Shown one piece after another: positions 2,814 through 24,587 of a stretch of 32,000 nt of DNA. Position numbers and translations under genes: made by a program. The DNA is taken from positions 89,449-121,448 of the forward strand of contig JBHLMI010000001.1 of assembly GCA_048938295.1 (NCBI GenBank), written 5' to 3'. Every line of letters begins with the position of its first letter. Position 1 is the stretch's first letter. A model generated the notes under the pieces. It saw only the letters and a program-made list of their open reading frames with translations. It was not told the origin of the DNA and searched no databases. The DNA is from Promethearchaeota archaeon. Lineage in GTDB: Archaea; Asgardarchaeota; Hermodarchaeia; Hermodarchaeales; Hermodarchaeaceae.

Positions 2814-4418
2814 CTATTCAGGTGGAATCTCCGCTTGAGCCTTGCTTATTGAAATACCCTTGGACTTGTGATAGAAGTAACTGATGTAGTAGATGATGGG
2901 TGCGATAATGAACGTCACGACTACTGCGAGCATAAACGACCAATCAATCGTGCCAGCTACCGCAGGAGACACTGAGGCATATCCAATGAATATGGAGATT
3001 GGGATAGAGATCAATGAGAACAGAGAAATTAATGGAATACCTGCTATCTTTTTCTTCGCAAAGTCCGGTGCAAGTTCAAAGATGTCCTTTCTTCGCCATG
3101 GGAAGATAACGCCTGCGATGCCAACAATGACCATCGCAATCCACCACGCGAGTATACTGTAGGTAAAGTAATCGAGGGCAGTTGTGTAGATGTAAAGGAT
3201 GTTCATTATCATAGAGATAATGAAAGTGACGATGATGGCAACCCAGGGAGCTCTAAAGCGGCTATCAACCTTTGAGAGGGAGCTAGGAAGTACGCGGTCA
3301 AATGACCATGCGAATATATTTCGGACACTGGAAATGAACAGACCAAGTGCAGCACCGAAACAACCAAAGGCGAAACAGATAGTTAGAAACGGTGGTATAA
3401 AGGCAATATCTGTGGCAAACATCGCTAGAATGTTGCCTAAGGGTTCAATTGGGAAATGACTCCACCAAAGTGGATCTCCTGCCACATCAAGATACGCTAA
3501 GCTATTCATAATCACTGGACCCATGGCGTAGTTATAGACAGCATAAAGACCGAAGGCAGTGAATCCGAAGATAAAGAGTGCGCCAATAATGGCGATGATA
3601 TGTGACCGAGTTACTCCCTTAATCTCTCCTGCAATATATGCAGAGTTAGTATATCCAAGGAAGTTTAACGTTGTATACGTGGTCGCAAAGAATGTCACTC
3701 CAATACCAATCGGAAGCGCTGCCGCGACGACCCAGCCTCCTGCCACAGCCGCGGCTTCTATCGACGCAAACGAAAGTGCTCCTCCTGTAAGAAGCTGCAT
3801 TCGTGCGTCAATAAGCGGAGCCCCAGCAATCATAATGCCGGCCCACACCATCAATCCAATGTAACCCAGAATAATGGATACCCATTCTGCTCGGAATTCC
3901 CATTTGGACCCGAGGAATGAAAGGAGTGCCATTAGTACGATTATCACTGTACCTATTGCTAGTTTTACCTCGTTGATGTTTAGCAAAGCAAAAATGGCCA
4001 ATGCACCTGCGTCACCTGTCATGGTTCCCCAAGTAAGCCAAATTGGCGCTAAACCCCATTCGACAATCCATGATGCAAAAGGTCCTGCCCAGGAAAGGAG
4101 AATCAGGGTGATATACCAGTTAACTGCGAACCCGACGGCTGGATGAATGATTCGGCTAACCCAAACGTAATCGCCACCTGAACGGGGCATCGCTATGCTA
4201 AACATAACGTACATAATGGCGTTCGGAATCATGAAAGCGATTGCAATGAGTGCCGAAAGGGGCATCCACACGCCGGGACCGTGAAGACCTACTGCCCACA
4301 TTTGATAGACCCAAGGCCAAAAGATCCCTGGAATCAGAATGCACATAACTAGAGCGTCCCAAGCACTGACGTTGCGAACAAGACCGGAAGCTTTTCGAAC
4401 AAATATTTCTTCTCCCAT
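2814..4418 (-). CDS. APC-superfamily amino acid/amine permease
   Basis: 534 aa, about 12 hydrophobic segments; FVRKASGLVR N-terminus, MPRSGGDYVWVSR, AYIAGEIK, RNIFAWSFDRVLP. Confidence 0.9.
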   Translation of the reverse strand: MGEEIFVRKASGLVRNVSAWDALVMCILIPGIFWPWVYQMWAVGLHGPGVWMPLSALIAIAFMIPNAIMYVMFSIAMPRSGGDYVWVSRIIHPAVGFAVNWYITLILLSWAGPFASWIVEWGLAPIWLTWGTMTGDAGALAIFALLNINEVKLAIGTVIIVLMALLSFLGSKWEFRAEWVSIILGYIGLMVWAGIMIAGAPLIDARMQLLTGGALSFASIEAAAVAGGWVVAAALPIGIGVTFFATTYTTLNFLGYTNSAYIAGEIKGVTRSHIIAIIGALFIFGFTAFGLYAVYNYAMGPVIMNSLAYLDVAGDPLWWSHFPIEPLGNILAMFATDIAFIPPFLTICFAFGCFGAALGLFISSVRNIFAWSFDRVLPSSLSKVDSRFRAPWVAIIVTFIISMIMNILYIYTTALDYFTYSILAWWIAMVIVGIAGVIFPWRRKDIFELAPDFAKKKIAGIPLISLFSLISIPISIFIGYASVSPAVAGTIDWSFMLAVVVTFIIAPIIYYISYFYHKSKGISISKAQAEIPPE

Positions 4419-7644: not shown

Positions 7645-8754
7645 GTGGAACCTAGCCAGATGAAAATTTTCGGATCAGCTAGTCGGTATGTACAAGGACG
7701 TGGAGCTCTAGACGAAGTTGGTGTCCACATTACTAAGATCGGCAAACAAGCACTCATTTTAGGGGGCAAAACGGCACTAGGCATAACAGAAAAACGGCTA
7801 AATAAAAGTCTAAATGAGTCTGATGTCAACATCGTAGCGATAGACAAAACGGTTCGAATGTCGACTTACCCAACAATTGAACGACTTACTGGTATTGGTA
7901 AAAAAGAGAAAGCTGACATCATTATTGGCGTGGGCGGGGGTGTGTCCGTTGATACTGCGAAGGCTGTTGCATATAAACTCCACGTACCAGTCGCGTGTGT
8001 GCCAACCCAATGCGCTACCAATGCAGATGCAAGTGCCCTTTCAGTCATCTATACCGATGAACATGAGTGGCTCGAATACCTCTTCTATCCAAAGAACCCA
8101 GATCTAGTCTTAGTAGATCCTGAAATTTTAGTAACTGCTCCTGCAAAATTCACAGTATGGGGAATGGGTGATGCATTGGGGGCTAATATTGAGGCAAAAG
8201 CATGCGTTGCCCAACCAAACGCTTCTAGCCTCCTATTTGGACGTCCAACCGCTGTATCACCTTGGATTGGAGAATTGTGCGAACATAACCTACTAACCTA
8301 CGGATATCGAGCTGCAAAAGACCTTGAACAAAAACTCGTAACTCCTTTTGTTGAACGTATCTTTGAATCCATTAAACTTCTTAGTAGCTTATGCGCCGAA
8401 AGCACTGGTCTAGCCGCGGCCCATGCTATTCACAATGGTCTAACTTTCATCTCTGGAGTAAAAGCTAATCATGGCGAAATCGTTGCATTTTGCGTTCTAG
8501 TGCAAATGATGCTTGAAAACCGTGAACCCAAAGAAATAGAGAGGATAATGGCATGGGAGCACAAGGTCGGCCTTCCCATAACTCTCGCTCAACTTGGTGA
8601 CATCAACCCCGAAGATCTTGGCACGGCTGCTGAAAAAGCCTGTAACCCTAAAGACACGATGGGAAACATGCCCATTGCAATTTCGCCTGGAATGGTCAGA
8701 GATGCTATAATCGCGGTGGATAAATGGGGTACAGATTTTACTGAAACCCACTAA
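7645..8754 (+). CDS. gldA: Glycerol dehydrogenase family, Zn-dependent polyol dehydrogenase
   Basis: 369 aa; SRYVQGRG, GVGGGVSVDTAKA, PTQCATNADASALSVIYT; Zn ligands in GMGDAL, AAAHAIHNGLT, HGEIVAF. Confidence 0.88.
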   Translation: MEPSQMKIFGSASRYVQGRGALDEVGVHITKIGKQALILGGKTALGITEKRLNKSLNESDVNIVAIDKTVRMSTYPTIERLTGIGKKEKADIIIGVGGGVSVDTAKAVAYKLHVPVACVPTQCATNADASALSVIYTDEHEWLEYLFYPKNPDLVLVDPEILVTAPAKFTVWGMGDALGANIEAKACVAQPNASSLLFGRPTAVSPWIGELCEHNLLTYGYRAAKDLEQKLVTPFVERIFESIKLLSSLCAESTGLAAAHAIHNGLTFISGVKANHGEIVAFCVLVQMMLENREPKEIERIMAWEHKVGLPITLAQLGDINPEDLGTAAEKACNPKDTMGNMPIAISPGMVRDAIIAVDKWGTDFTETH

Positions 8755-14375: not shown

Positions 14376-14780
14376 CTAACTCTTATCCTTTTCAAATTTG
14401 AGTGCAATGGAATTGATACAGTAGCGGCATCCGGTCTTATCTTTAGGTCCATCATCAAAGACATGACCCAGGTGCCCACCGCAGTTCTTGCACACGACTT
14501 CAATTCGCCGCATCCCATGCGACAAATCCAACCTCTCCTCAATTTTGTCCTTATCCAGGGCCTCATAAAAACTCGGCCACCCACTCCCCGACTCAAATTT
14601 CGCTTCTGATGAAAAGAGTTCCACCCCACAACCTGCACATTTGTAAGTACCCTTTTCTTTTTGTTTCCAATATTTCCCCGTGAACGGCCGTTCGGTTCCC
14701 TTCTGTCGCAACACTTGATACTCTTCTTTTAACAGCTTCTTCTTCCATTCTTCATCAGTTACTTCTCTTGCCTTCTTCAT
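14376..14780 (-). CDS. msrB: Peptide methionine-R-sulfoxide reductase, Cys type, Zn-binding
   Basis: [12 protein letters not shown] and CKNC Zn motifs, [27 protein letters not shown]; alternative GTG start at 14792. Confidence 0.96.
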
Positions 14781-14976
14781 CTCAACCAACACTCCTACAT
14801 CTCTGAATTCCTAATTGCCTTAAGCAGACAATAATACCGACTAGTGAGTTAGAAAAGGGGGCTTTAACTCCAATGAACTTACCAGAGTTACCCACACCAA
14901 ACGCGTTCTTACTCGTTTTCCTACTCAGCCTGTACGATTCCATTAGGTATATATTCGGCAATTACTCTCTTCTAGT

Positions 14977-15222
14977 TTGGAGGCGAAAGGTATCAAAAAC
15001 CGCGTCCAAGACCATAATGGAAAATCTCATAACCGACACTGGGCGGCTTACATCGAAGCGATGCGTGGACCCCTAAGCAGCATACCGGCGGATGATCAAA
15101 AAATCGATGCCGAGATTGCCAGGGAACGTGCCGAAACCCGGTTCTTCCAGGCACGCAATCAATCCTCCATGAAACGATCAGCATTCCATCTGACCAAAAT
15201 GCTCAAACGCCAAAGTGGGTAA
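14977..15222 (+). CDS. Small hypothetical ORF or gene remnant (charged helical segment)
   Basis: 81 aa with TTG start; the core WAAYIEAMRG...DDQKIDAEIARERAE looks protein-like, but no family recognised. Confidence 0.25.
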   Translation: MEAKGIKNRVQDHNGKSHNRHWAAYIEAMRGPLSSIPADDQKIDAEIARERAETRFFQARNQSSMKRSAFHLTKMLKRQSG

Positions 15223-15246
15223 CCAACATAACACAAAACCAACCAA

Positions 15247-15834
15247 GTGAATGGGTTGCTGAACCGAAGGGTTAGTATCGCCATTTTAGTCGTGGTAGTT
15301 ATTAGTGGCTGGCTAACCTTCCCTAACCGAGTTACCGGGGAAACGATTGAAAGTGTTATAATCTGTGTGTACTGCGAGGGAGATTGGTCTGGCAGCTACG
15401 GTGCTAGATCCGACATTCACCAAATTTCTGGCAACACTAGCACAACCTACCAATTCAATCGAACCAATCCAACTTATGGGTGGGCACCCACAGCCATCGT
15501 GTCAAAAACCAGTCCTGGAACTTACAACCTCACCCTAACCATCGAGACACCAACGAGAATCAAACTCGAACGAGCCACGACCACCGCCGAATATGGTCAA
15601 GTCACAGTAGCCTGGAGTGAAGAACCCATACCAATTCCCGGATTTCCGTGGCCTGCAATTCTCTTCGCACTAATCGGCACTTTTCCCCTTATCCTGAAAC
15701 AAAAAAGAAACAACTCCTCTATAACAGGACCTAAAACGAATTACTGCTTGAATTGCAGGGCGCCTATAACCAATCCTTTTTCTGGATTCCTGTATCTTGA
15801 CACATTGGAATCGTGTTTTTCCTTGCAAGACTAA
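15247..15834 (+). CDS. Secreted/surface protein with PGF-like C-terminal sorting segment; 3' end probably rearranged
   Basis: N-terminal hydrophobic signal, Thr/Ser/Asn-rich beta domain, PIPIPGFPW + TM + KQKR, then a lone CxxC (YCLNC) and a tail that overlaps the fumarase fragment in antisense. Confidence 0.7.
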   Translation: MNGLLNRRVSIAILVVVVISGWLTFPNRVTGETIESVIICVYCEGDWSGSYGARSDIHQISGNTSTTYQFNRTNPTYGWAPTAIVSKTSPGTYNLTLTIETPTRIKLERATTTAEYGQVTVAWSEEPIPIPGFPWPAILFALIGTFPLILKQKRNNSSITGPKTNYCLNCRAPITNPFSGFLYLDTLESCFSLQD

Positions 15835-15928
15835 CATTATCTAAAATGGCTTTTAGCTGATTCCTAGCGGTGCAATTTGTCTCTTTTGCTAATGCGTGTT
15901 CAAGACCTTCAGAAACATCAGAATCAAT
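15764..15928 (-). pseudogene. Fragment of class I fumarate hydratase / L-tartrate dehydratase alpha subunit
   Basis: Minus strand gives IDSDVSEGLEHALAKETNCTARNQLKAILDNVSLARKNTIPMCQDTGI, then QKKDWL and stop. Matches the family N-terminus ending in the CQDTG motif; no start codon; absent from the ORF track. Confidence 0.8.
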
Positions 15929-16276
15929 AAACTCTTCATCAAAGGCCGAGAGCAGATATTGCAGAAAAAACTCGGCATTATGCGATTTAGCCCAGTTTTT
16001 GGCAGATTGCAGCCCGAGGATGATACCCGGAACTTTACTAATTACAGCATTAATAGCCCCAATTTGCTCAAATGTGAGGATAAACTGTATCTAGGGTAAC
16101 TTACAAAAGGTTGGTTTGCACCTAATACGTTTCCAGCTTAAAAACCTGAAAAGTCTCAATCATCAAGTGAAAGCCTATATCATACAAGTGGACAAGTACC
16201 TTATTAGAATTCATTGGGGGAATGTGAACCCCAGATCAACTTCAACATGTAAAAGCCCGGAGGATTGAGGGATATC

Positions 16277-18790
16277 ATGACATTGGACCAAGTTCGTACA
16301 TCAATATTAAAACGGCAATATGACCAAGCCCTTCAACTAATCTCAAACCTTCCAGAAAACGAAAAGATCAAAGGGCAAACCTACAAAGGCATTATCCTCT
16401 CGAAACAAAACGACTTCACCTCTGCGCTAGCTACAATTGATGAAATCCTAACTCGTGAAGGTTTGTCTGCAGCACAAGAATTTGTAGCTAGAGTTGGTAA
16501 GATTCTGATACTTTTGCGGATGAAAAATTATCCTGCTGCCCATAGTGAAGTCGATCAAAGCGAAAAACTTCTGAGTCAGTTGACGAAGACTCAACGGACA
16601 GACGTAACGCGTTGGAAAGGCCATCTGTTTTCAGCAAAGGCGACCTTTGAAATTATTGAAGGGAATCAAGACAAAGCCATTGACTGCTATGTGCGAAGCG
16701 CCTCGCTATTCGAAGAAGTGGATGATAAATACGACCACCTTATGCAAGTGATAAACATTAGCTGGCTGTATCGTGCTCAGGGCCTGCTGGATAAGTCGCT
16801 TGAATATTCGAGCCAACAATTCGAAATAAGTAAGGAACTTGGTGAGAAACGGTATATAGGATGGTCGAACTTCAACATCGCCATGATCTATTTCTACAAA
16901 GGGATACTCGATCAGGCTGCTCATTACGCCGCAAAAGCTGAACAAATCTTCGAAGAGTTAGGCCACCAGGAAGGACTCTCGTTTAGCCACGCAACAATTG
17001 CCTCAGTATATCGAAGCAAAGGCGAGTTCGAAAAAGCCCTCTTCTATTATAATAGAGTCCTGTTAAGTTATGAAGAAATTGCGAAGACAACCCAGCCTCT
17101 CCCGCACTGCTATTGCCTATCTCTCCGAGATATTGGATCCATCTATTTGTACCAAGACAGGCTGGACGAGGCGATTAACATCCTTCAGAAGGCGTTGACC
17201 ATCCATAAGAGCCGGTGCAAGATGCGGAACACGGTCATGGATTATGAAATCATGATCTCCAATTTGTACAGCATCTATGCACAAATTGAGAAAGGAGACA
17301 CAGATCAGGTAGAAAGAAACCTTAGCGATATCAGACAAACGGCACAGCAGTATCCGTGGTTAGATGTTGCAGCCAAAGCAGCCGAGGCATTCATCTTGCA
17401 AAATCAACCTCGGGGAAAAGACAAAGCTAGAGCTCAAGCACTGTATGAAGAAATCCTTGATGCAAAATTTGATTATGAATTGGAATTGCTCATTCAGGTC
17501 AATCTCAGCGATTTACTCCTAGACGAATTACGAATGTATGGCGAACCTGCTGTGCTAGAAGAACTCCAGACGGTAATGCGACGCATTTCAGAGACCGCCA
17601 ACAAGCAACGATCCATCACATCACTCATTTTCCTCTATCTCCTGCAGGCGAGACTAGCAGTCATCGATGGCGATGCCGACCGAGCAAAGGAGTTTCTTGC
17701 TCGCGCAGATATAATTGCCAAGGAAAAAGGATTAGTCCACTTCACTAAGAAGATCCAGAAAGCCAACCAACAGCTTAACGACCAGCTAAAAGAGTGGAAG
17801 ACCCTCTTTGTCCAGAATTCATCAATTCAAGAGCAGATTGAACTTCTAAACCTAAAGGAGTTTATCACCGAAGCCGTGACCTCTGCGTTGGAAAAACGCT
17901 TCGAGACAGCCAAGAAGTTCCTCCTCGTCTACGAAGACTTTCTCAAACCAAAGAACAAGATACCAGTTGAAACTTGTCGCGTTGGTATCGCTCAAATCGG
18001 AATAAGTCAAAGTGGTAACCTATTGGAAGAAATCTACGAGCAAAAGGCTCCAGGAATTTTTGGGATCAAAAAGCAACGTGTCGAAACAGTGAAAAAATGC
18101 GTAATAAAGCTCGTTGAAGAGGCCGTGGCGAAGGGCGTCAATATCTTGCTCTTCCCTGAACTGAGTATTGATTTAAACTATCAAACACTTCAGCAAACAC
18201 TGCAGGACCTAGTTTCGCAGCACAACATGTACATCATCCCGGGCTCTTACCACGACCCTAAATTGGCACGGAATGTCAGCCTTGTGTTGAGTCCACAAGG
18301 AATTCTATGGGAACAAGAGAAACACATACCTGCTACCATCCATTTTGAGGGAAACAAAATCGAAGAAGGAATCAACGTCGATACCCTGCCACACCAGATT
18401 ACCATTGCCGATACCGAGTACGGTCGCATCGCTATTGTTATTTGCCGTGATTTCCTCGATCTGGATCTACGCGTAGAATTGAAGAACAGTGAACCACCCA
18501 TTGACATCATCCTCAATCCTGCCTTCACTCCCGTTACCGCCGATTTCCAGGCGGCCCACTTCGATGCGCGACGTTCTATATACGCCTACTGTTTCTTTGC
18601 CAATATCGCTGAATTTGGCAACTCTTTCATTTACACGCCTGAACGGGAACGCACCGAGTATGAAATCCCAGCAAAACATGAAGGTCTCACCTACAAGGAT
18701 ATTGACCTATTCAAGCTAAGAGCTGAACGCCGTCGCTGGGAACAGAAACAAGCAAAGACACGACCATTCATTCAAAGTACGAGAAGCTAG
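16277..18790 (+). CDS. TPR-repeat protein fused to a C-terminal carbon-nitrogen hydrolase (nitrilase-fold) domain
   Basis: About 550 aa of TPR-like helices, then RVGIAQI, LLFPELS (Glu), QEKHIP (Lys), VICRDFL (Cys); ATG at 16277 preferred over TTG at 16265. Confidence 0.85.
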   Translation: MTLDQVRTSILKRQYDQALQLISNLPENEKIKGQTYKGIILSKQNDFTSALATIDEILTREGLSAAQEFVARVGKILILLRMKNYPAAHSEVDQSEKLLSQLTKTQRTDVTRWKGHLFSAKATFEIIEGNQDKAIDCYVRSASLFEEVDDKYDHLMQVINISWLYRAQGLLDKSLEYSSQQFEISKELGEKRYIGWSNFNIAMIYFYKGILDQAAHYAAKAEQIFEELGHQEGLSFSHATIASVYRSKGEFEKALFYYNRVLLSYEEIAKTTQPLPHCYCLSLRDIGSIYLYQDRLDEAINILQKALTIHKSRCKMRNTVMDYEIMISNLYSIYAQIEKGDTDQVERNLSDIRQTAQQYPWLDVAAKAAEAFILQNQPRGKDKARAQALYEEILDAKFDYELELLIQVNLSDLLLDELRMYGEPAVLEELQTVMRRISETANKQRSITSLIFLYLLQARLAVIDGDADRAKEFLARADIIAKEKGLVHFTKKIQKANQQLNDQLKEWKTLFVQNSSIQEQIELLNLKEFITEAVTSALEKRFETAKKFLLVYEDFLKPKNKIPVETCRVGIAQIGISQSGNLLEEIYEQKAPGIFGIKKQRVETVKKCVIKLVEEAVAKGVNILLFPELSIDLNYQTLQQTLQDLVSQHNMYIIPGSYHDPKLARNVSLVLSPQGILWEQEKHIPATIHFEGNKIEEGINVDTLPHQITIADTEYGRIAIVICRDFLDLDLRVELKNSEPPIDIILNPAFTPVTADFQAAHFDARRSIYAYCFFANIAEFGNSFIYTPERERTEYEIPAKHEGLTYKDIDLFKLRAERRRWEQKQAKTRPFIQSTRS

Positions 18791-18805: not shown

Positions 18806-18900
18806 GCCATCTTCGCCCGTTCCCGCTCTTCCCAACTCCTCTCCTAGAACCACATCCATGATCTACTCCTCTTATCTAATCAGGTTTGAAAAGGATAATC
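18806..18900 (-). repeat. Copy 4 (most decayed) of the hydrogenase-gene 3' end
   Basis: Minus strand reads att atc ctt ttc aaa cct gat...gag gag tag a tca tgg atg tgg ttc tag gag agg agt tgg gaa gag cgg gaa cgg gcg aag, i.e. IILFKPD..EE*SWMWF*ERSWEERERAK, with stops and small indels. Confidence 0.7.
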
Positions 18901-18958
18901 TCAAACCGTAATCAAGAAAAGGCCAAATCTAGAATAGCAATTTCAAGGTGCATCAACT

Positions 18959-19369
18959 TTGACAAAGAAAAAAGGCTTCCTTCAACGCCGCTGGACTGAC
19001 TTCCGCACAGGACACAGTACCTACCTCGTCTATTTCCTCGCCTTCATGAACTTCAGCATCCTCATGTACGAACTCGTCCTCGTCAACATCCCGGGAATGC
19101 AACTCCTCTTCCCCAACATCCTCTACTTCCTCCTCGTATTCCTCGCCATCTACATCCCCCTCGCCGCCATCATCGGCTGGCTCCACCGCCGCTACCAAAT
19201 GCCTGTCGACATCGCCCTATCCATGAAACAAAACCCCTACTGGCGCGACATCACCAAATCCCTCGCTGAGTTCGAAAAAGGCATGCTCCTCATCGCCCAA
19301 GCCAAAAACAACGAAGCCATCACAATCCTCCAAAACGCCATCAAACGCCTCGAAATGGACTTCGCCTAA
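18959..19369 (+). CDS. Uncharacterised archaeal-type two-TM membrane protein
   Basis: 136 aa with TTG start; RRWTDFRTGHSTYL, two hydrophobic helices, IGWLHRRYQ...QNP; third codon positions almost all C or A. Confidence 0.75.
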   Translation: MTKKKGFLQRRWTDFRTGHSTYLVYFLAFMNFSILMYELVLVNIPGMQLLFPNILYFLLVFLAIYIPLAAIIGWLHRRYQMPVDIALSMKQNPYWRDITKSLAEFEKGMLLIAQAKNNEAITILQNAIKRLEMDFA

Positions 19370-19452
19370 CCACAAGATAAAGACTAATAGAAAACCGCCT
19401 CATCTACAACCAACGTGAACCAAGTTAAAGAAGACAAAACCAAACCAGACAA

Positions 19453-19570
19453 TTAACAACGCCACGCCTTGACGCGTTCTCGTTCTTCTCTTGGAACCAC
19501 GTCCACGGCTTCTCTTCTTTCGACCCATCAGGGGATGTGTGAATGATCCTGTCAGTGCAGGAGATGCAGG
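19453..19570 (-). repeat. Copy 3 of the hydrogenase-gene 3' end (includes part of the L2 motif; about 10-nt internal deletion)
   Basis: Minus strand gives CISCTDRIIHTSPDGSKEEKPWTWFQE, a frameshift, then ERERVKAWRC and stop. Confidence 0.92.
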
Positions 19571-19689
19571 TAACTCGAACAAATTGCTCTCTGGTGCCTT
19601 GAGAAGTGTGACGATTAAGACTGGAAAAGTCCTGTGCTAATCGAAGGTTCTTTCACAAGTCATAAAAACTCAGAAAATAACCATAATCG

Positions 19690-20163
19690 ATGGTGAACGA
19701 AATGGTAAAGGTTATTGTCGTTTATGATACAAAGTATGGCAACACAAAGCTTGTAGCCCAAAAAATCGTGGAGGGAATAAACGAAATCGAGGGAATAGAG
19801 ACCACCATCAGTGATGTCAAAGACACCGATCCCAAAAAGGTAGCCAATTATGATGCAATATTGATCGGGTCACCAACACATTTTGGGGGACCCGCTAGGA
19901 GCATAAATACGCTTATTGATAAACTAGGCAAACTCGACTTGAGAACGAAATGGGCTGCTGTGTTCGACACCTATCTGGGCGAAGACTTCGAAAAATCCGT
20001 AAAGAAAATGGAGGGACGAATACGCGAAAAGGCTCCCAAATTGAAGCTCATAACATCAGGCCTGTCAATACGGGTTGATGGAATGAAGGGACCAGTCACA
20101 GATGGAGAGCTCCCCAAATGCAAAGATTTCGGAAAGCAAATCGCAACCCAACTAAAGACCTGA
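19690..20163 (+). CDS. Flavodoxin-domain protein
   Basis: 157 aa; VYDTKYGNTK FMN loop, LIGSPTHFGG, AVFDTY; alternative start at 19702. Confidence 0.9.
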   Translation: MVNEMVKVIVVYDTKYGNTKLVAQKIVEGINEIEGIETTISDVKDTDPKKVANYDAILIGSPTHFGGPARSINTLIDKLGKLDLRTKWAAVFDTYLGEDFEKSVKKMEGRIREKAPKLKLITSGLSIRVDGMKGPVTDGELPKCKDFGKQIATQLKT

Positions 20164-20333
20164 CCAACTACCTTGGAAGAAATTGCTAGAACATAGTGCC
20201 TTATCTACTCTCTTACAAGCACTTTCTACCACATTCTGCCTTATCTAGCCTACATCAAATCACCTTGACAAAATCTACCACTAAACACCACTGTGTTTCC
20301 ATGCGATCTCCAATGTGAGACGGGGCAAACTAA

Positions 20334-20440
20334 CTACCATCGCCACGCCTTCGCCTGCTCACGTTCCTCATGACTCTTCGCTTGGAACCATGTCCACGGT
20401 TTCTCCTCTTTCGAACCATCAGGGTACGCAAGAATAATCC
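20334..20440 (-). repeat. Copy 2 of the hydrogenase-gene 3' end (intact frame)
   Basis: Minus strand gives IILAYPDGSKEEKPWTWFQAKSHEEREQAKAWRW and stop; 85/107 nt identical to 21999-22105 without gaps. Confidence 0.96.
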
Positions 20441-20457
20441 ACTCCAACAATTCAGGT

Positions 20458-21819
20458 TTACATTCTTCGCTGCCGTAAAATCCACACTAAAGCGAATATG
20501 ACTAATACCGCAACCACGGCGATCACAAACAATATGGCAGGAATTAGTTCTGGTGGGATACCCAGAAAGGGAAGGTTCGGATCAGGGGGTGGGATATCGG
20601 GAATCGAAAATAACCAAACACTGGAACAACATATCGTAACAATATCTGCACACACAACAAATACCCCAGGGCTTGACTCTATGATTCCAATGCCGAACGT
20701 CCCTTTAGGAAGATGATCAGGATACGTACAATTCCAGTCTTGGTTTCCAGTCGCATTTGTTCGAACCAACAAAATATCCCGGAAGTCTTCACCGATCCGC
20801 CAGGTACCACCAACCAGCATATATCCTCCATCTGAACACTGGACAGCATCAAATACGGTATCATGGAGTGGTCCTCCGAACGTTTGGTTCCAAAGCAATA
20901 CGCCGTTTGTATCAGTTCGGAGAAGATAGATATCGAAGGCAGCAGAATTTGATCCTTGACCAAAAGTTTCCCCGTACAAGATGAATCCGTTATCGGTTGT
21001 TCGTTTCAGACCCGAAAAAGTAAGACCAAGTGGTGCTCCTGGAAAGGTGAAGTTTTGTTCCCAAAGAAATCCTCCGGTCGAGTTGGTACGCGTCAAAGCA
21101 ATGTAATCTCCATTGTACGTCCCAGCCAGAGCAAAGCCTGCATCCTCGCATTGGACGAAATCCACAAAAGTACTCCCCGCTGAAGAATAGAACTGATGCC
21201 ACAGATAATTCCCTTCCGCATCTATCCGATGAAGGAAATAATCCGCTACTCTCCAACCAGTCATAGCAAATCCCCCATCTCCACATTCCATGACCGAACA
21301 ACCCCCCTGATTAATATTCCCCGATAGAAGGGGAAACATCTTCTTCCAACGAAGCATTCCATCAGGTTCCGTTCGAATAAGAAAATGTGTCATATCTCCA
21401 TGAATATTCGGAGTAGTGCCAATAATTGCAAATCCCCCATCCGCGCACTGGCACACGTCCTTCGGTGCGCCGCCTCCAAATAAATAATCGATTTTGTAAA
21501 CCTCTTCCCATAAAAGCATGCCCTGAGCATCAAAGCGACCCAGCCATATGGTCCCATCCGGATGACCCATAGTAAACGCCAGTACTGCATACCCGCCATC
21601 AGCGGTTTCAATTAACCGTTCAGGATACAACACAATACCCTGGTCATTATGCGCAATTATAGTAGACCAAACTGGCGGAGAGCCAGCCCGCGGAGCTGTT
21701 GATGCCTCTGCACTCGCAACGCTATTTCGAAGCTGGACACCCCCCAAGCCCGCAACCATCACCATGAGGGACACAACTACGACAATGCACGCTTCCCGAC
21801 ACCTCACTTGCGTACTCAA
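20458..21819 (-). CDS. Secreted beta-propeller-like repeat protein with C-terminal membrane anchor
   Basis: 453 aa; signal peptide, about 6-7 repeats of (E/Q)C.DGG(F/Y)...G......L.RTD..G...W, Pro-rich linker, TM helix and RQRR. Confidence 0.82.
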   Translation of the reverse strand: MSTQVRCREACIVVVVSLMVMVAGLGGVQLRNSVASAEASTAPRAGSPPVWSTIIAHNDQGIVLYPERLIETADGGYAVLAFTMGHPDGTIWLGRFDAQGMLLWEEVYKIDYLFGGGAPKDVCQCADGGFAIIGTTPNIHGDMTHFLIRTEPDGMLRWKKMFPLLSGNINQGGCSVMECGDGGFAMTGWRVADYFLHRIDAEGNYLWHQFYSSAGSTFVDFVQCEDAGFALAGTYNGDYIALTRTNSTGGFLWEQNFTFPGAPLGLTFSGLKRTTDNGFILYGETFGQGSNSAAFDIYLLRTDTNGVLLWNQTFGGPLHDTVFDAVQCSDGGYMLVGGTWRIGEDFRDILLVRTNATGNQDWNCTYPDHLPKGTFGIGIIESSPGVFVVCADIVTICCSSVWLFSIPDIPPPDPNLPFLGIPPELIPAILFVIAVVAVLVIFALVWILRQRRM

Positions 21820-21998
21820 TTCTCTCTGCCTCCCATCACACCCCTACTACTAATTTGGCGTTACAAAAATATTTGGAATGCGGTTCCTTAGGAAACCTCA
21901 ACTTCACAATGACCTCGGCCACTGTAATGTTGTACCACAACATAAGACGAAGCAATGAAAGGATAATGAAATCTAGCCCCAAATACTGGCTCAACTGT

Positions 21999-22127
21999 CT
22001 AACGACGCCAAGCTTTCACGCGGTCCCGCTCTTCACGGCTCTTTTGTTGGAACCATGCCCACGGCTTCTCCTCTTTCGAACCATCAGTGTATGCGAGAAT
22101 AATCCTATCAGTACATGAAAAGCAGGG
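21999..22127 (-). repeat. Copy 1 (current, in-gene) of the repeated 3' end
   Basis: Encodes PCFSCTDRIILAYTDGSKEEKPWAWFQQKSREERDRVKAWRR and stop. Confidence 0.96.
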
Positions 22128-23204
22128 ATCAATTGAGGCGAGGGCGATGGGGACGTCGGCGATTTTGCCGCCTTTGAGGAGTTCGATGACGCTGGGGATG
22201 TTGCCGAGGGTGGGGGCGCGGGCTTTGTGGCGTTCGGGTTTGTCGGTGCCGTTGCTGACGACGAAGTGGACGACTTCGCCGCGTGGGGCTTCGAAGGTGC
22301 TGAGGGCTTTGCCGGGTGGGACGCGTTTGGGGGCGCGGACGCTGATGTCGCCGGAGGGGAGGTGGGTGAGCCATTCGATGCAGCTGTTGCAGGCGTCGAC
22401 GGTTTCGAGCATGCGGACGACGACGCGGCCGGCGACATCGCACATATCGGAGGTGCGGATTTCCCAGTGTTTGCCTTCGCTTTCTTTGTAGGGGGTGCGT
22501 GGTTGGGTGTTACGGACGTCCCAGTGGATGTTGGAGGCACGGGCGGTAGGGCCGGTGGCGCAGAGGGCTTTCCCTGTCTCGGTTTCAAGGATACCGACGC
22601 CGAGAGCACGGTCTAGAATCGATTGTTCTTTGAGGATAAGCTTCAGGTAGTGGTTCACGCGGCCGCGGATCTTTTCTAGGCGCTCTACCATACCAGGGAC
22701 TTGGCTCTTCTCAACATCGTGGCGGACACCGCCGATGATGTTATTGGCATAGTTGACGCGGTTCCCACAAATTTCTTCGATGATATCTAGGCTGTATTCG
22801 CGATCCCTCCACGAGTAGTGGAATAAGGTATCCCAGCCGATTTCGTGTCCCGCTACACCGAGCCAGAGGATGTGGCTGTGAATCCGGTTCAGCTCATTCA
22901 TGATGCCCCGAATGTATAATCCCCGGCGGGGCACATCTAAGCCGAGTATTTCTTCAACAGCTTGAACGTAGCATGTGGTATGGGATTGGGAGCAGATACC
23001 GCAAATACGTTCCGCGAGGTAGACATTTTGGCTATACGTGCGGCTTTCAAATGCCTTTTCGATACCCCGGTGTACGTAACCAATACGGGCTGCGACGTCG
23101 ACGACGATTTCTCCGTCGACGGTGAGGGTGAAGTTTTCGGGCTCTTTGAGCGCCGGGTGTTGGGGACCGATGGGAATAGTCATGGTGGTGGGTGTCTTAG
23201 ACAT
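21999..23204 (-). CDS. Group 4 (energy-converting, complex I-like) [NiFe]-hydrogenase large subunit
   Basis: 401 aa; IPIGPQHPALKEP, GYVHRGIEK, L1 ERICGIC, ELNRIHSH, EAPRGE, L2 DPCFSCTDR and a 34-aa extension; all four Cys ligands present. Confidence 0.93.
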   Translation of the reverse strand: MSKTPTTMTIPIGPQHPALKEPENFTLTVDGEIVVDVAARIGYVHRGIEKAFESRTYSQNVYLAERICGICSQSHTTCYVQAVEEILGLDVPRRGLYIRGIMNELNRIHSHILWLGVAGHEIGWDTLFHYSWRDREYSLDIIEEICGNRVNYANNIIGGVRHDVEKSQVPGMVERLEKIRGRVNHYLKLILKEQSILDRALGVGILETETGKALCATGPTARASNIHWDVRNTQPRTPYKESEGKHWEIRTSDMCDVAGRVVVRMLETVDACNSCIEWLTHLPSGDISVRAPKRVPPGKALSTFEAPRGEVVHFVVSNGTDKPERHKARAPTLGNIPSVIELLKGGKIADVPIALASIDPCFSCTDRIILAYTDGSKEEKPWAWFQQKSREERDRVKAWRR

Positions 23205-23354
23205 AGTGAGTCAACTACCTGAAAGGATTCAGTGTAGTGTGTTCATGCCAGGTTCTTCCTTAAGAAATTAACCATCAAACTATGATACGGCAGGCTGTTT
23301 TTATAGTCTGGAGAAAAAAACGAACACAAGCGAACTGATTCAAAACGTAACAGC

Positions 23355-24182
23355 TTAGGTGCTTGGTTTTTTTGATAGACGTGTGTAGCCATAGATAATG
23401 ACCAAAGTGATGGCATAGATAGAGTACAGTATGATGATAGCTAGAAAGTACCATTGTAACTGAATGAGACCTAAGATTTCAACGAATAGGGCGAGTGAGA
23501 AGTTAAAGGACGCGTGGAAAATTATGGCGCCCAAGACGCTTCCATTGGTGTTGTTCACAATCCATGTGATAATGATGGATATGAACACCGTTAACAAGAT
23601 AAAACTTAGAAAATTAGGGATATCAAATTGCCCCTCCTCAAGTCCAATTAACAGATAAATGGGTAAATGCCAGAATCCCCAGAATACTCCAAGGATGAGG
23701 CTTGAACCTACTGCGCTAAACCGTGATTGCAGACGTGGTAATGCGAATCCCCGCCAGCCCAATTCTTCTCCAATGGCACCAATCACCACACTACCAATTA
23801 ACCATAACAAACCAACACTCCAGTCAAAGGGTATATGCGGTCCAGGGAGTGGATTACCCAGACCAATGGATAGCCCTATTGCTAGTAGGGCAATCGCGAA
23901 GGGCGAAAGAGCTGCAAAGTACCAACCAATTCCAATTCTCCATATCCCTAATTTTCCTACAAGTTTCTTAATTCCGTTCCGTTCTTTCAAGACTAATAAT
24001 ATCACGATGAACGCGGCAATACTTGGTGCCCAAGGAGGAAAAAGTTGGAGCACAAAAAGTGGTATTGCGGCCGAAATACCGATTGCCACGATGAAAAGTA
24101 CAAAGGCTAGAATAAAGAACCACAAGACAACAGATCCGCTCGAGGATATCTGTGTTTTAGAGTCGGTCGTTTCAAGTGTCAT
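23355..24182 (-). CDS. CPBP (CAAX/Abi)-family intramembrane metalloprotease
   Basis: 275 aa polytopic; GEELGWRG, FWGFWHLP, IIFHASFN. Confidence 0.92.
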   Translation of the reverse strand: MTLETTDSKTQISSSGSVVLWFFILAFVLFIVAIGISAAIPLFVLQLFPPWAPSIAAFIVILLVLKERNGIKKLVGKLGIWRIGIGWYFAALSPFAIALLAIGLSIGLGNPLPGPHIPFDWSVGLLWLIGSVVIGAIGEELGWRGFALPRLQSRFSAVGSSLILGVFWGFWHLPIYLLIGLEEGQFDIPNFLSFILLTVFISIIITWIVNNTNGSVLGAIIFHASFNFSLALFVEILGLIQLQWYFLAIIILYSIYAITLVIIYGYTRLSKKPST

Positions 24183-24587
24183 AATATTTCAAGACAAAAC
24201 AATTGAAAGATATACAAATACCTTCATAAACCGGTTAGTTCAAATTTTTCTATAACAAATTCATTTTTTTTAGTTTCAAGATTGTAACCTGAGTGTTGAT
24301 CTAAGAATTTACGAAACGATTTCTTGTTTGACCTTTTATGACCAAGGAAATTTGGGTTTGACCAATGATTTCCTTAAGAGATTTTGGTTTTATCAATGAT
24401 TCACAGCGTTAACCTAGCGGATAACTGGGTGTGAAAGGTTAGCTTCTGCCTTAATGGCCATGGTAATGAGTGTTGTAGATCTTGGGAAGGGTTAAAGATG
24501 AAGATCGCCTAATCGCGAAGTCGGATGCTTCAAGGGTCTTAAATATGAGGTATACTCACCATTCTCTACTTATGGAGCGTTTGTCGT

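Follow-up and report, generated by a model that had tools for sequence, protein, structure and literature searches.

The 32-kb stretch analysed here (the window; position numbers refer to it unless a contig is named) belongs to a Hermodarchaeota (Asgard) metagenome-assembled genome (MAG) of 2.52 Mb and 45.8% G+C, the source genome G000. It carries the gene for the large subunit of a group-4 [NiFe]-hydrogenase, behind which extends an array of ∼7 kb (window about 14.9 to 22.1 kb) where co-oriented copies of the end of that gene, hereafter tails, are interspersed with accessory genes that we refer to as cargo (Table 1). Both metal-binding motifs of the hydrogenase are intact (RICGICSQSH and DPCFSCTDR), and the second is followed by a C-terminal extension of 35 aa; such extensions are the piece that the maturation protease cuts off. 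Orthologues in congeners are 84 to 92% identical, and the full extension is retained throughout the genus and its sister genus. The repeated unit of the array corresponds to the gene end from the DPC motif via this extension to the stop codon.

A search of the whole genome by nhmmer, with a profile of orthologous gene ends, returned exactly four tail copies, all on the minus strand and all at the hydrogenase locus. These are the gene's own end (tail 0) and three displaced tails (T1 to T3), i.e., the same four co-oriented 3′ ends that the preliminary description of this DNA had listed. Alignments by eye added T4, a remnant fused to a flank which in the relative G002 directly follows the hydrogenase stop codon; msrB comes after it. 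Each of the three intervals between tail 0, T1, T2, and T3 contains a single open reading frame (ORF), and similarity to the gene ends at the stop codon, or no more than 5 nt from it, in T1 and T2, both as previously described. Identity to the gene's own tail is 79 to 81% for T1, 75 to 81% for T2, and about 65 to 71% for T3. The proposed increase of decay with distance from the gene thus applies to T3, which is clearly more decayed, but not to T1 and T2, which are about equally diverged.

T2 begins precisely with the P-C codons of DPCxxC (profile position 23) and still reads C-I-S-C-T-D-R, which argues that the copies derive from real hydrogenase ends rather than from a small ORF that was later fused to the gene. 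Tail 0 and T1 differ by a proportion of synonymous differences (pS) of 0.61, with a ratio of nonsynonymous to synonymous proportions (pN/pS) of 0.20, whereas pS between sister species is 0.27; both tails were therefore once working gene ends in different lineages. Logan contigs of two sequencing runs span every copy (X1 records 2, 3, and 6; X3 records 12, 13, and 15), so the array is not a product of mis-assembly, one of the outcomes that the preliminary description had named as fatal to its proposal. None of these contigs contained a cassette-skipping joint, which is uninformative on excision because such contigs drop rare variants. A genome-wide repeat family or a miniature inverted-repeat transposable element was discarded, since blastn and nhmmer found the tail solely at the hydrogenase locus. 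An RNA gene or a folded site was likewise rejected: the tails had no Rfam match above threshold and no inverted repeat inside them, and RNAalifold on ten tails (coding strand only) yielded 4 pairs with a consensus energy of -0.38 kcal/mol, i.e., no conserved structure.

Table 1. Hydrogenase gene, tails, and cargo in the window, listed from the gene outward
Feature	Position	Strand	Evidence or remark
[NiFe]-hydrogenase large subunit, group 4, 401 aa	21999..23204	-	PF00346 9.6e-54, PF00374 2.7e-18
Tail 0, gene's own end, stop at 21999	21996..22148	-	nhmmer profile positions 1-153, E 3e-46
Cargo 1, 453-aa beta-propeller-like protein, hydrophobic C-terminal end	20458..21819	-	weak SBBP propeller match, no Pfam family
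T1, displaced tail (copy 1), frame intact, start at ..R/IIL (profile position 41)	20331..20443	-	nhmmer E 8e-22
Cargo 2, flavodoxin, 157 aa	19690..20163	+	Pfam
T2, displaced tail (copy 2), 10-nt deletion	19449..19570	-	nhmmer E 4e-24
Cargo 3, 136-aa hydrophobic protein, no family	18959..19369	+	ORF list, Pfam scan
T3, displaced tail (copy 3), decayed, stops and indels	18810..18909	-	nhmmer E 3e-7
Cargo 4, four ORFs	14977..18790	+	Pfam and comparison with relatives
Cargo 4: TPR and carbon-nitrogen hydrolase	16265-18790		
Cargo 4: 74-aa ORF	15870-16094		
Cargo 4: 195-aa ORF	15247-15834		G003 homologue with Loki-CTERM sorting domain
Cargo 4: 81-aa ORF	14977-15222		
T4, 30-40-nt remnant of tail end	∼14891..14933	-	alignments by eye; too short for nhmmer
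msrB (SelR)	14376..14792	-	in array of 8/8 congeners compared

Arrays and tail exchange in relatives

Co-oriented displaced tails also follow the same hydrogenase gene in G003, G010, G011, G012, G013, and G014, as well as in the sister genus (G017). These arrays, which hold up to five tails, vary in cargo, order, and copy number, and G002 has msrB directly after the hydrogenase gene, without any inserted cassette or displaced tail. The order in G000 is beta-propeller, flavodoxin, 136-aa protein, the unit running from the TPR-hydrolase to the 195-aa and 81-aa ORFs, and msrB. The G003 array begins with a gene that we named c2 (see below) and continues with a stretch headed by the homologue of the 195-aa ORF, the homologue of the 136-aa protein, the flavodoxin, and msrB, whereas G012 exhibits c2 and its followers, beta-propeller, flavodoxin, an AAT gene, and msrB. 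Cargo 1 thus has a homologous cassette in G012, the flavodoxin cassette recurs in G003 and G012 with a different order in the former, and cargo 3 shares 87% DNA identity with part of the G003 array. Components of the four-gene cargo 4 also occur separately: the gene for the 195-aa homologue stands directly after a tail in G003, and in G010 the 81-aa gene has a tail on either side. In G000, G002, G010, and G011, msrB is preceded by a tail or by what is left of one. Other cargo of the relatives includes genes for a proteasome alpha subunit, an F420-dependent oxidoreductase, a luciferase-like monooxygenase, a solute-binding protein, and an AAT-family acyltransferase, and cargo occurs in both orientations.

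These comparisons bear out the view of the hydrogenase gene end as a landing pad, with cassettes that differ in number, identity, and order and with the unoccupied site of G002, either of which had been anticipated in relatives. The suggestion that the newest unit lies nearest the gene is not established, since c2 keeps the first position in eight genomes, whereas the outer cassettes differ and are reordered. As for the tiny, recombinase-free units of gene end plus cargo postulated earlier, Pfam scans of part of the array ORFs turned up no recombinase gene, but the array as a whole reaches ∼7 kb and one of its units has four genes. Contigs of relatives (G001, G005, G007, G011, G015, and G018) often stop inside or just past c2 or the hydrogenase gene; repeated tails and strain variants would be expected to fragment short-read assemblies in this way.

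Several displaced tails resemble the gene ends of other species more than the one upstream of them. The displaced tail of G011 is 84% identical to the gene tail of G013 versus 58% to its own, those of G003 are 77% identical to the gene tail of another species versus 65 to 67% to their own, and two of the four displaced tails of G012 are closer, more weakly, to gene tails of other species. In this respect, T1 and T2 of G000 are unlike the displaced tails of G011 and G003, being closest to their own gene tail. Signatures of replacement are also visible at the gene itself. The gene body of G011 stands apart from the G002 and G006 clade (100/99 support), and its tail is 85% G006-type. A contig of the sediment run X3 differs from the G000 gene body at 16 of 746 positions (87 to 153 in other species), and right after ..CTDR it has 30 nt identical to a G011-type tail, with the G000-type junction also present in that run. 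The X3 contig comes from a sister strain with a near-identical gene body and a foreign tail, and tails have passed from one lineage to another. The same nucleotides of the DPC codons, GAY C/CN TGY (the slash marks the edge here and in Table 1), form the left edge of six independent displaced tails, and other displaced copies start near ..R/II.. or further in.

Codon usage also varies along the gene. Third positions of codons 271 to 353 of the hydrogenase gene (window 22146-22394) are almost all C, with a G+C content at third positions (GC3) of 0.8 to 0.9, and are 82 to 100% identical over 11 species, versus 45 to 65% in the rest of the gene. These near-fixed C-ending synonymous sites end abruptly at codon 354, just ahead of the DPC motif, and the sequence from this codon to the stop is hypervariable. 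The patch could reflect biased gene conversion beside a recombination hot spot or, alternatively, a constraint at the nucleic acid level. A recent foreign origin of the hydrogenase gene, which its high G+C content might suggest, was dismissed, as the GC-rich core of C-ending codons is common to all congeners.

The c2 protein family

Directly behind the hydrogenase gene of eight congeners, 0 to 90 nt past its stop codon and convergent with it, lies the gene for c2, our name for a family of 650- to 770-aa proteins; a displaced tail comes after it in G003, G010, and G011. It was not found behind the hydrogenase gene in G000, G002, and G013. Sequence searches of Pfam, NCBIfam, and PDB gave no family match for c2, and fold search alone identified it. 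An AlphaFold2 (AF2) model built from 22 homologues reached a predicted local distance difference test (pLDDT) score of 86.6, and residues ∼361 to 653 of this model match a complete LAGLIDADG core with both halves, i.e., the two-fold pseudo-symmetric alpha-beta-beta-alpha-beta-beta-alpha fold with two LAGLIDADG helices. Structural alignment (VIA) yielded Z scores of 17.5 to PI-PfuI (root mean square deviation of 2.4 A over 186 residues), 17.1 to I-Tsp061I (187/204 residues), and 15.7 to I-DmoI, and the top 50 Foldseek matches to the model were all LAGLIDADG proteins. Two LAGLIDADG-like motifs are recognizable by eye. The core helices 363-380 and 464-478 close with acidic residues (..ALSD(C/G)H and ..IPE(D/E)G, respectively), as assigned by position in the model rather than by residue-level superposition; D380 and E477 are invariant in the 22 sequences, and residue 478 is D or E. 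The modelled fold thus marks c2 as a LAGLIDADG homing-endonuclease-like protein and a candidate enzyme for the events at these gene ends.

Homologues of c2 came solely from Asgard MAGs. When 301 Asgard genomes were searched with a hidden Markov model of the family, c2 was present in 15 of the 18 genomes of the Hermodarchaeota family and in 43 of 76 of another, often in multiple copies and often at contig ends. In every context seen, c2 is convergent with its neighbor, on the opposite strand. Its sporadic presence at one site, together with several target sites across paralogues, is the distribution expected of homing endonucleases. The N-terminal ∼340 residues (e.g., P0002:1-340) form a large helical domain, modelled with confidence and rich in His, Thr, Pro, and Leu, which matches no known family and gives a weak helix-turn-helix hint.

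The association of c2 with gene ends extends beyond the group-4 hydrogenase. G000 has a single c2 paralogue, a 636-aa open frame with 41% identity on contig C37 (L080:1-2600), which sits 5 nt past the end of a group-3-type [NiFe] large-subunit gene (DPCLSCAVH) and is followed by a displaced copy of the tail of this group-3 gene. A similar arrangement in L081, from a MAG labelled Thorarchaeota, comprises a group-3 hydrogenase gene, c2, and three displaced tails with cargo between them, and another c2 homologue abuts a HoxH-type gene. In L125, c2 is convergent with the gene for ornithine carbamoyltransferase (OTC), of which a 94-nt tail duplicate persists with 80% identity. At the loci sampled, further c2 genes converge on the ends of EtfA, uS19, rubredoxin, and S-adenosylhomocysteine (SAH) hydrolase genes, among others. 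OTC and these four neighbors were named by eye from their C-terminal sequences, and several script-picked target ORFs beside c2 that looked spurious (low complexity) were left out. In L120 (G004:C119), a c2 homologue lies beside a prematurely ending ORF that resembles the N-terminal part of UvrB, and a 179-nt stretch occurs there twice (3526-3703 and 8108-8285), with 73% identity and 4.4 kb apart. Some c2 members may thus reside within a gene or have duplicated a portion of it that is not the 3′ end.

Proposed gene-end replacement and rival explanations

The closest known counterpart of these loci is provided by the mORFs of fungal mitochondria, where an endonuclease ORF brings in a foreign C-terminus and displaces the native one downstream, as in atp6 of Allomyces macrogynus and in atp6, atp9, cox2, and nad3 of Glomus (PMC3630166). 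The archaeal loci share with them a LAGLIDADG gene at a conserved gene's 3′ end, a replacement C-terminal piece, and a native end left behind as a duplicate, the new tail being more divergent from relatives than the displaced one. A duplicated C-terminal piece with the native one past the endonuclease ORF is found in G003, G010, G011, C37, L081, and L125, whereas the window has the tail duplicates without the endonuclease ORF. Other features set the two systems apart: the target lies on an archaeal chromosome and not in an organelle; c2 is encoded on the opposite strand rather than in phase or cotranscribed with its target; the protein, at 650 to 770 aa, has large extra domains; and the events are serial, with up to five tails and unrelated accessory genes.

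We therefore favor, with a probability of roughly 0.6, endonuclease-initiated replacement of the gene end, mORF-like and serially repeated, and read the window as the relic array of such repeated replacements at the hydrogenase 3′ end, now without its endonuclease. We infer that c2 is the enzyme that cuts these sites and drives the events. It would cleave the DNA encoding the conserved DPCxxCxxR region and the C-terminal extension, and the break would be repaired from another allele or tail copy, with homology on the gene side giving a seamless new tail. DNA that follows the tail in the donor, comprising c2 and/or other genes, would be copied in along with it, and the resident tail, from the break to the stop codon, would stay behind as a pseudo-tail. 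Serial events, combined with tail-by-tail recombination, would then stack, delete, and reorder the units of tail and cargo. At the G000 locus, c2 was presumably lost or never acquired, and the array would be decaying now because of its absence. This scheme revises the mechanism offered in the preliminary description, namely, a trans-acting site-specific recombinase or homology-anchored illegitimate recombination, as the relatives point to a free-standing LAGLIDADG-like candidate and the tails have no conserved fold.

A number of observations weigh against gene-end replacement by c2. The array of the window contains neither a c2 gene nor a remnant detectable by tblastn, and the sole c2 of G000 is at another hydrogenase. 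Tails right after c2 start at profile positions ∼85 to 89, or at 41 to 43 with a deletion, instead of at the DPC edge, which may reflect more than a single break site or enzyme. Of the c2 contexts examined, most have no detectable tail duplicate, and no observation explains the capture of unrelated cargo. The assignment of c2 itself is not backed by Pfam, where LAGLIDADG_3 scores E 0.13 and 13 bits against a cut-off of 22.5, and WhiA shares the LAGLIDADG fold yet is non-catalytic; cleavage by c2 and its recognition site are accordingly putative. Furthermore, c2 proteins are 57 to 80% identical among congeners, and a recent co-transfer of tail and c2 between G011 and G006 is not supported, as their c2 proteins are 58.6% identical though their tails are alike. 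No resistance signature could be defined by eye in the c2-adjacent tails.

Plain homologous recombination would dispense with the nuclease. Circles carrying a hydrogenase 3′ fragment and neighboring genes would integrate by a single crossover in the tail, which yields exactly the succession gene, tail, cargo, and tail, and tail-by-tail recombination would then excise and reshuffle units, with c2 as an unrelated selfish passenger. The mosaic appearance of tail 0 in G000, G004-like on the left and displaced-tail-like on the right, fits this proposal, as does the homology between shared cassettes, which begins inside the tails. Such recombination does not, however, predict the identical, nucleotide-precise left edge of six independent copies, nor does it account for a LAGLIDADG gene at the junction in several unrelated target genes, and we regard it as rather unlikely. 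Alternatively, the tails could serve as sites for a trans-acting site-specific recombinase encoded elsewhere that inserts, excises, and shuffles units of tail and cargo, c2 being just a frequent cargo. Integrons, including the sedentary chromosomal ones, come to mind here: the ∼100- to 130-nt repeats are co-oriented between small accessory units, the left edge is precise, the content and order of the small cassettes vary between relatives, and G000 encodes two tyrosine-recombinase homologues (PF00589). These are on other contigs (C32 and C33), however, instead of adjacent to the array as IntI is to attI, and Pfam scans of part of the ORFs revealed no recombinase gene within the inspected arrays or next to them. 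Unlike attC sites, which are folding imperfect palindromes with R″/R′ cores, the tails (folded as coding strand) lack conserved secondary structure; they decay freely, lose their 5′ parts, and do not look selected as sites, and they have diverged in the manner of former coding sequence of the neighboring gene. Cargo in both orientations is a further difference from integrons, and if c2 were passive cargo, its repeated appearance at so many different gene ends would go unexplained. An integron-like origin is, in our judgment, unlikely.

Integrative elements that target tRNA or transfer-messenger RNA (tmRNA) genes are well known to accrete in tandem at the 3′ ends of these genes, where each event restores the gene end and displaces the old one, leaving tandem gene-end repeats. 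The direct repeats of the array are indeed the 3′ end of the target gene, and it is conceivable that integrase-bearing elements accumulated in tandem behind the hydrogenase and later lost their integrases and most of their genes. Nevertheless, no integrase or recognizable fragment of one was found among the array ORFs scanned in about a dozen genomes, the cargo looks housekeeping or accessory rather than mobile-element-derived, and the units are as small as 0.55 kb. The target here is protein coding, and the candidate enzyme is a nuclease and not a recombinase. Decayed integrative elements are thus a very unlikely source of the array. Whole-gene duplication in tandem at the locus with later deletions, or an artefact of assembly, has nothing in its favor beyond the repeats themselves. 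The Logan contigs that bridge each copy, the synonymous divergence of tail 0 and T1 above that of sister species under a pN/pS of 0.20, and the differences in cargo and order between species speak against both, and the precise left edge and the movement of tails between lineages speak against whole-gene duplication in particular, so this second outcome that would have undone the earlier proposal is hardly credible.

The proposed gene-end replacement by a LAGLIDADG-like protein also recalls the intronless homing of T4-like phages, where a free-standing endonuclease gene lies beside a conserved target gene and spreads by break repair and co-conversion of flanks. Those endonucleases are mostly of the GIY-YIG or HNH types, and to our knowledge the phage cases leave no stacked duplicates of the target end and capture no cargo. 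Full-text literature searches returned no account of gene-end replacement by endonuclease ORFs in the chromosome of a cellular archaeon or at a hydrogenase gene, nor of serial arrays that build up accessory genes in this way. Tentatively, the c2 family may represent an Asgard, nuclease-driven counterpart of integrons, making the 3′ ends of conserved genes, such as those for hydrogenases and OTC, hot spots of break repair; foreign gene ends and accessory genes might there be captured, stacked as tail-delimited cassettes, and reshuffled, a possibility that we advance with equal reserve. An active c2 would provide a concrete route of horizontal gene gain at conserved loci and a testable enzyme for recombinase-less, integron-like arrays in Asgard genomes. 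It would also explain the frequent contig breaks at such genes in these MAGs and offer new long-target LAGLIDADG scaffolds.

The wider hydrogenase locus

NuoH-like and NuoI-like partner genes come after the array in G002, G003, G006, G011, and G014, and in these five congeners the NuoH-like gene lies 2.4 to 15 kb past the hydrogenase gene. The G000 orthologue of the NuoH-like gene (G000:C2:87274-88434) is ∼1 kb before the start of the window and 23 kb downstream of the hydrogenase gene. Hydrogenase and NuoH-like genes probably form one operon that the array has split, most of the window being between the two. No small-subunit gene was found beside the large-subunit gene at the G000, G004, G010, and G013 loci. 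On the other side of the hydrogenase gene, the stretch between it and LonB (window 23205-24587) is variable among species too: it encodes a CAAX protease in G000, and unrelated ORFs of 460 to 490 aa stand upstream of the hydrogenase gene in G004, G010, and G013.

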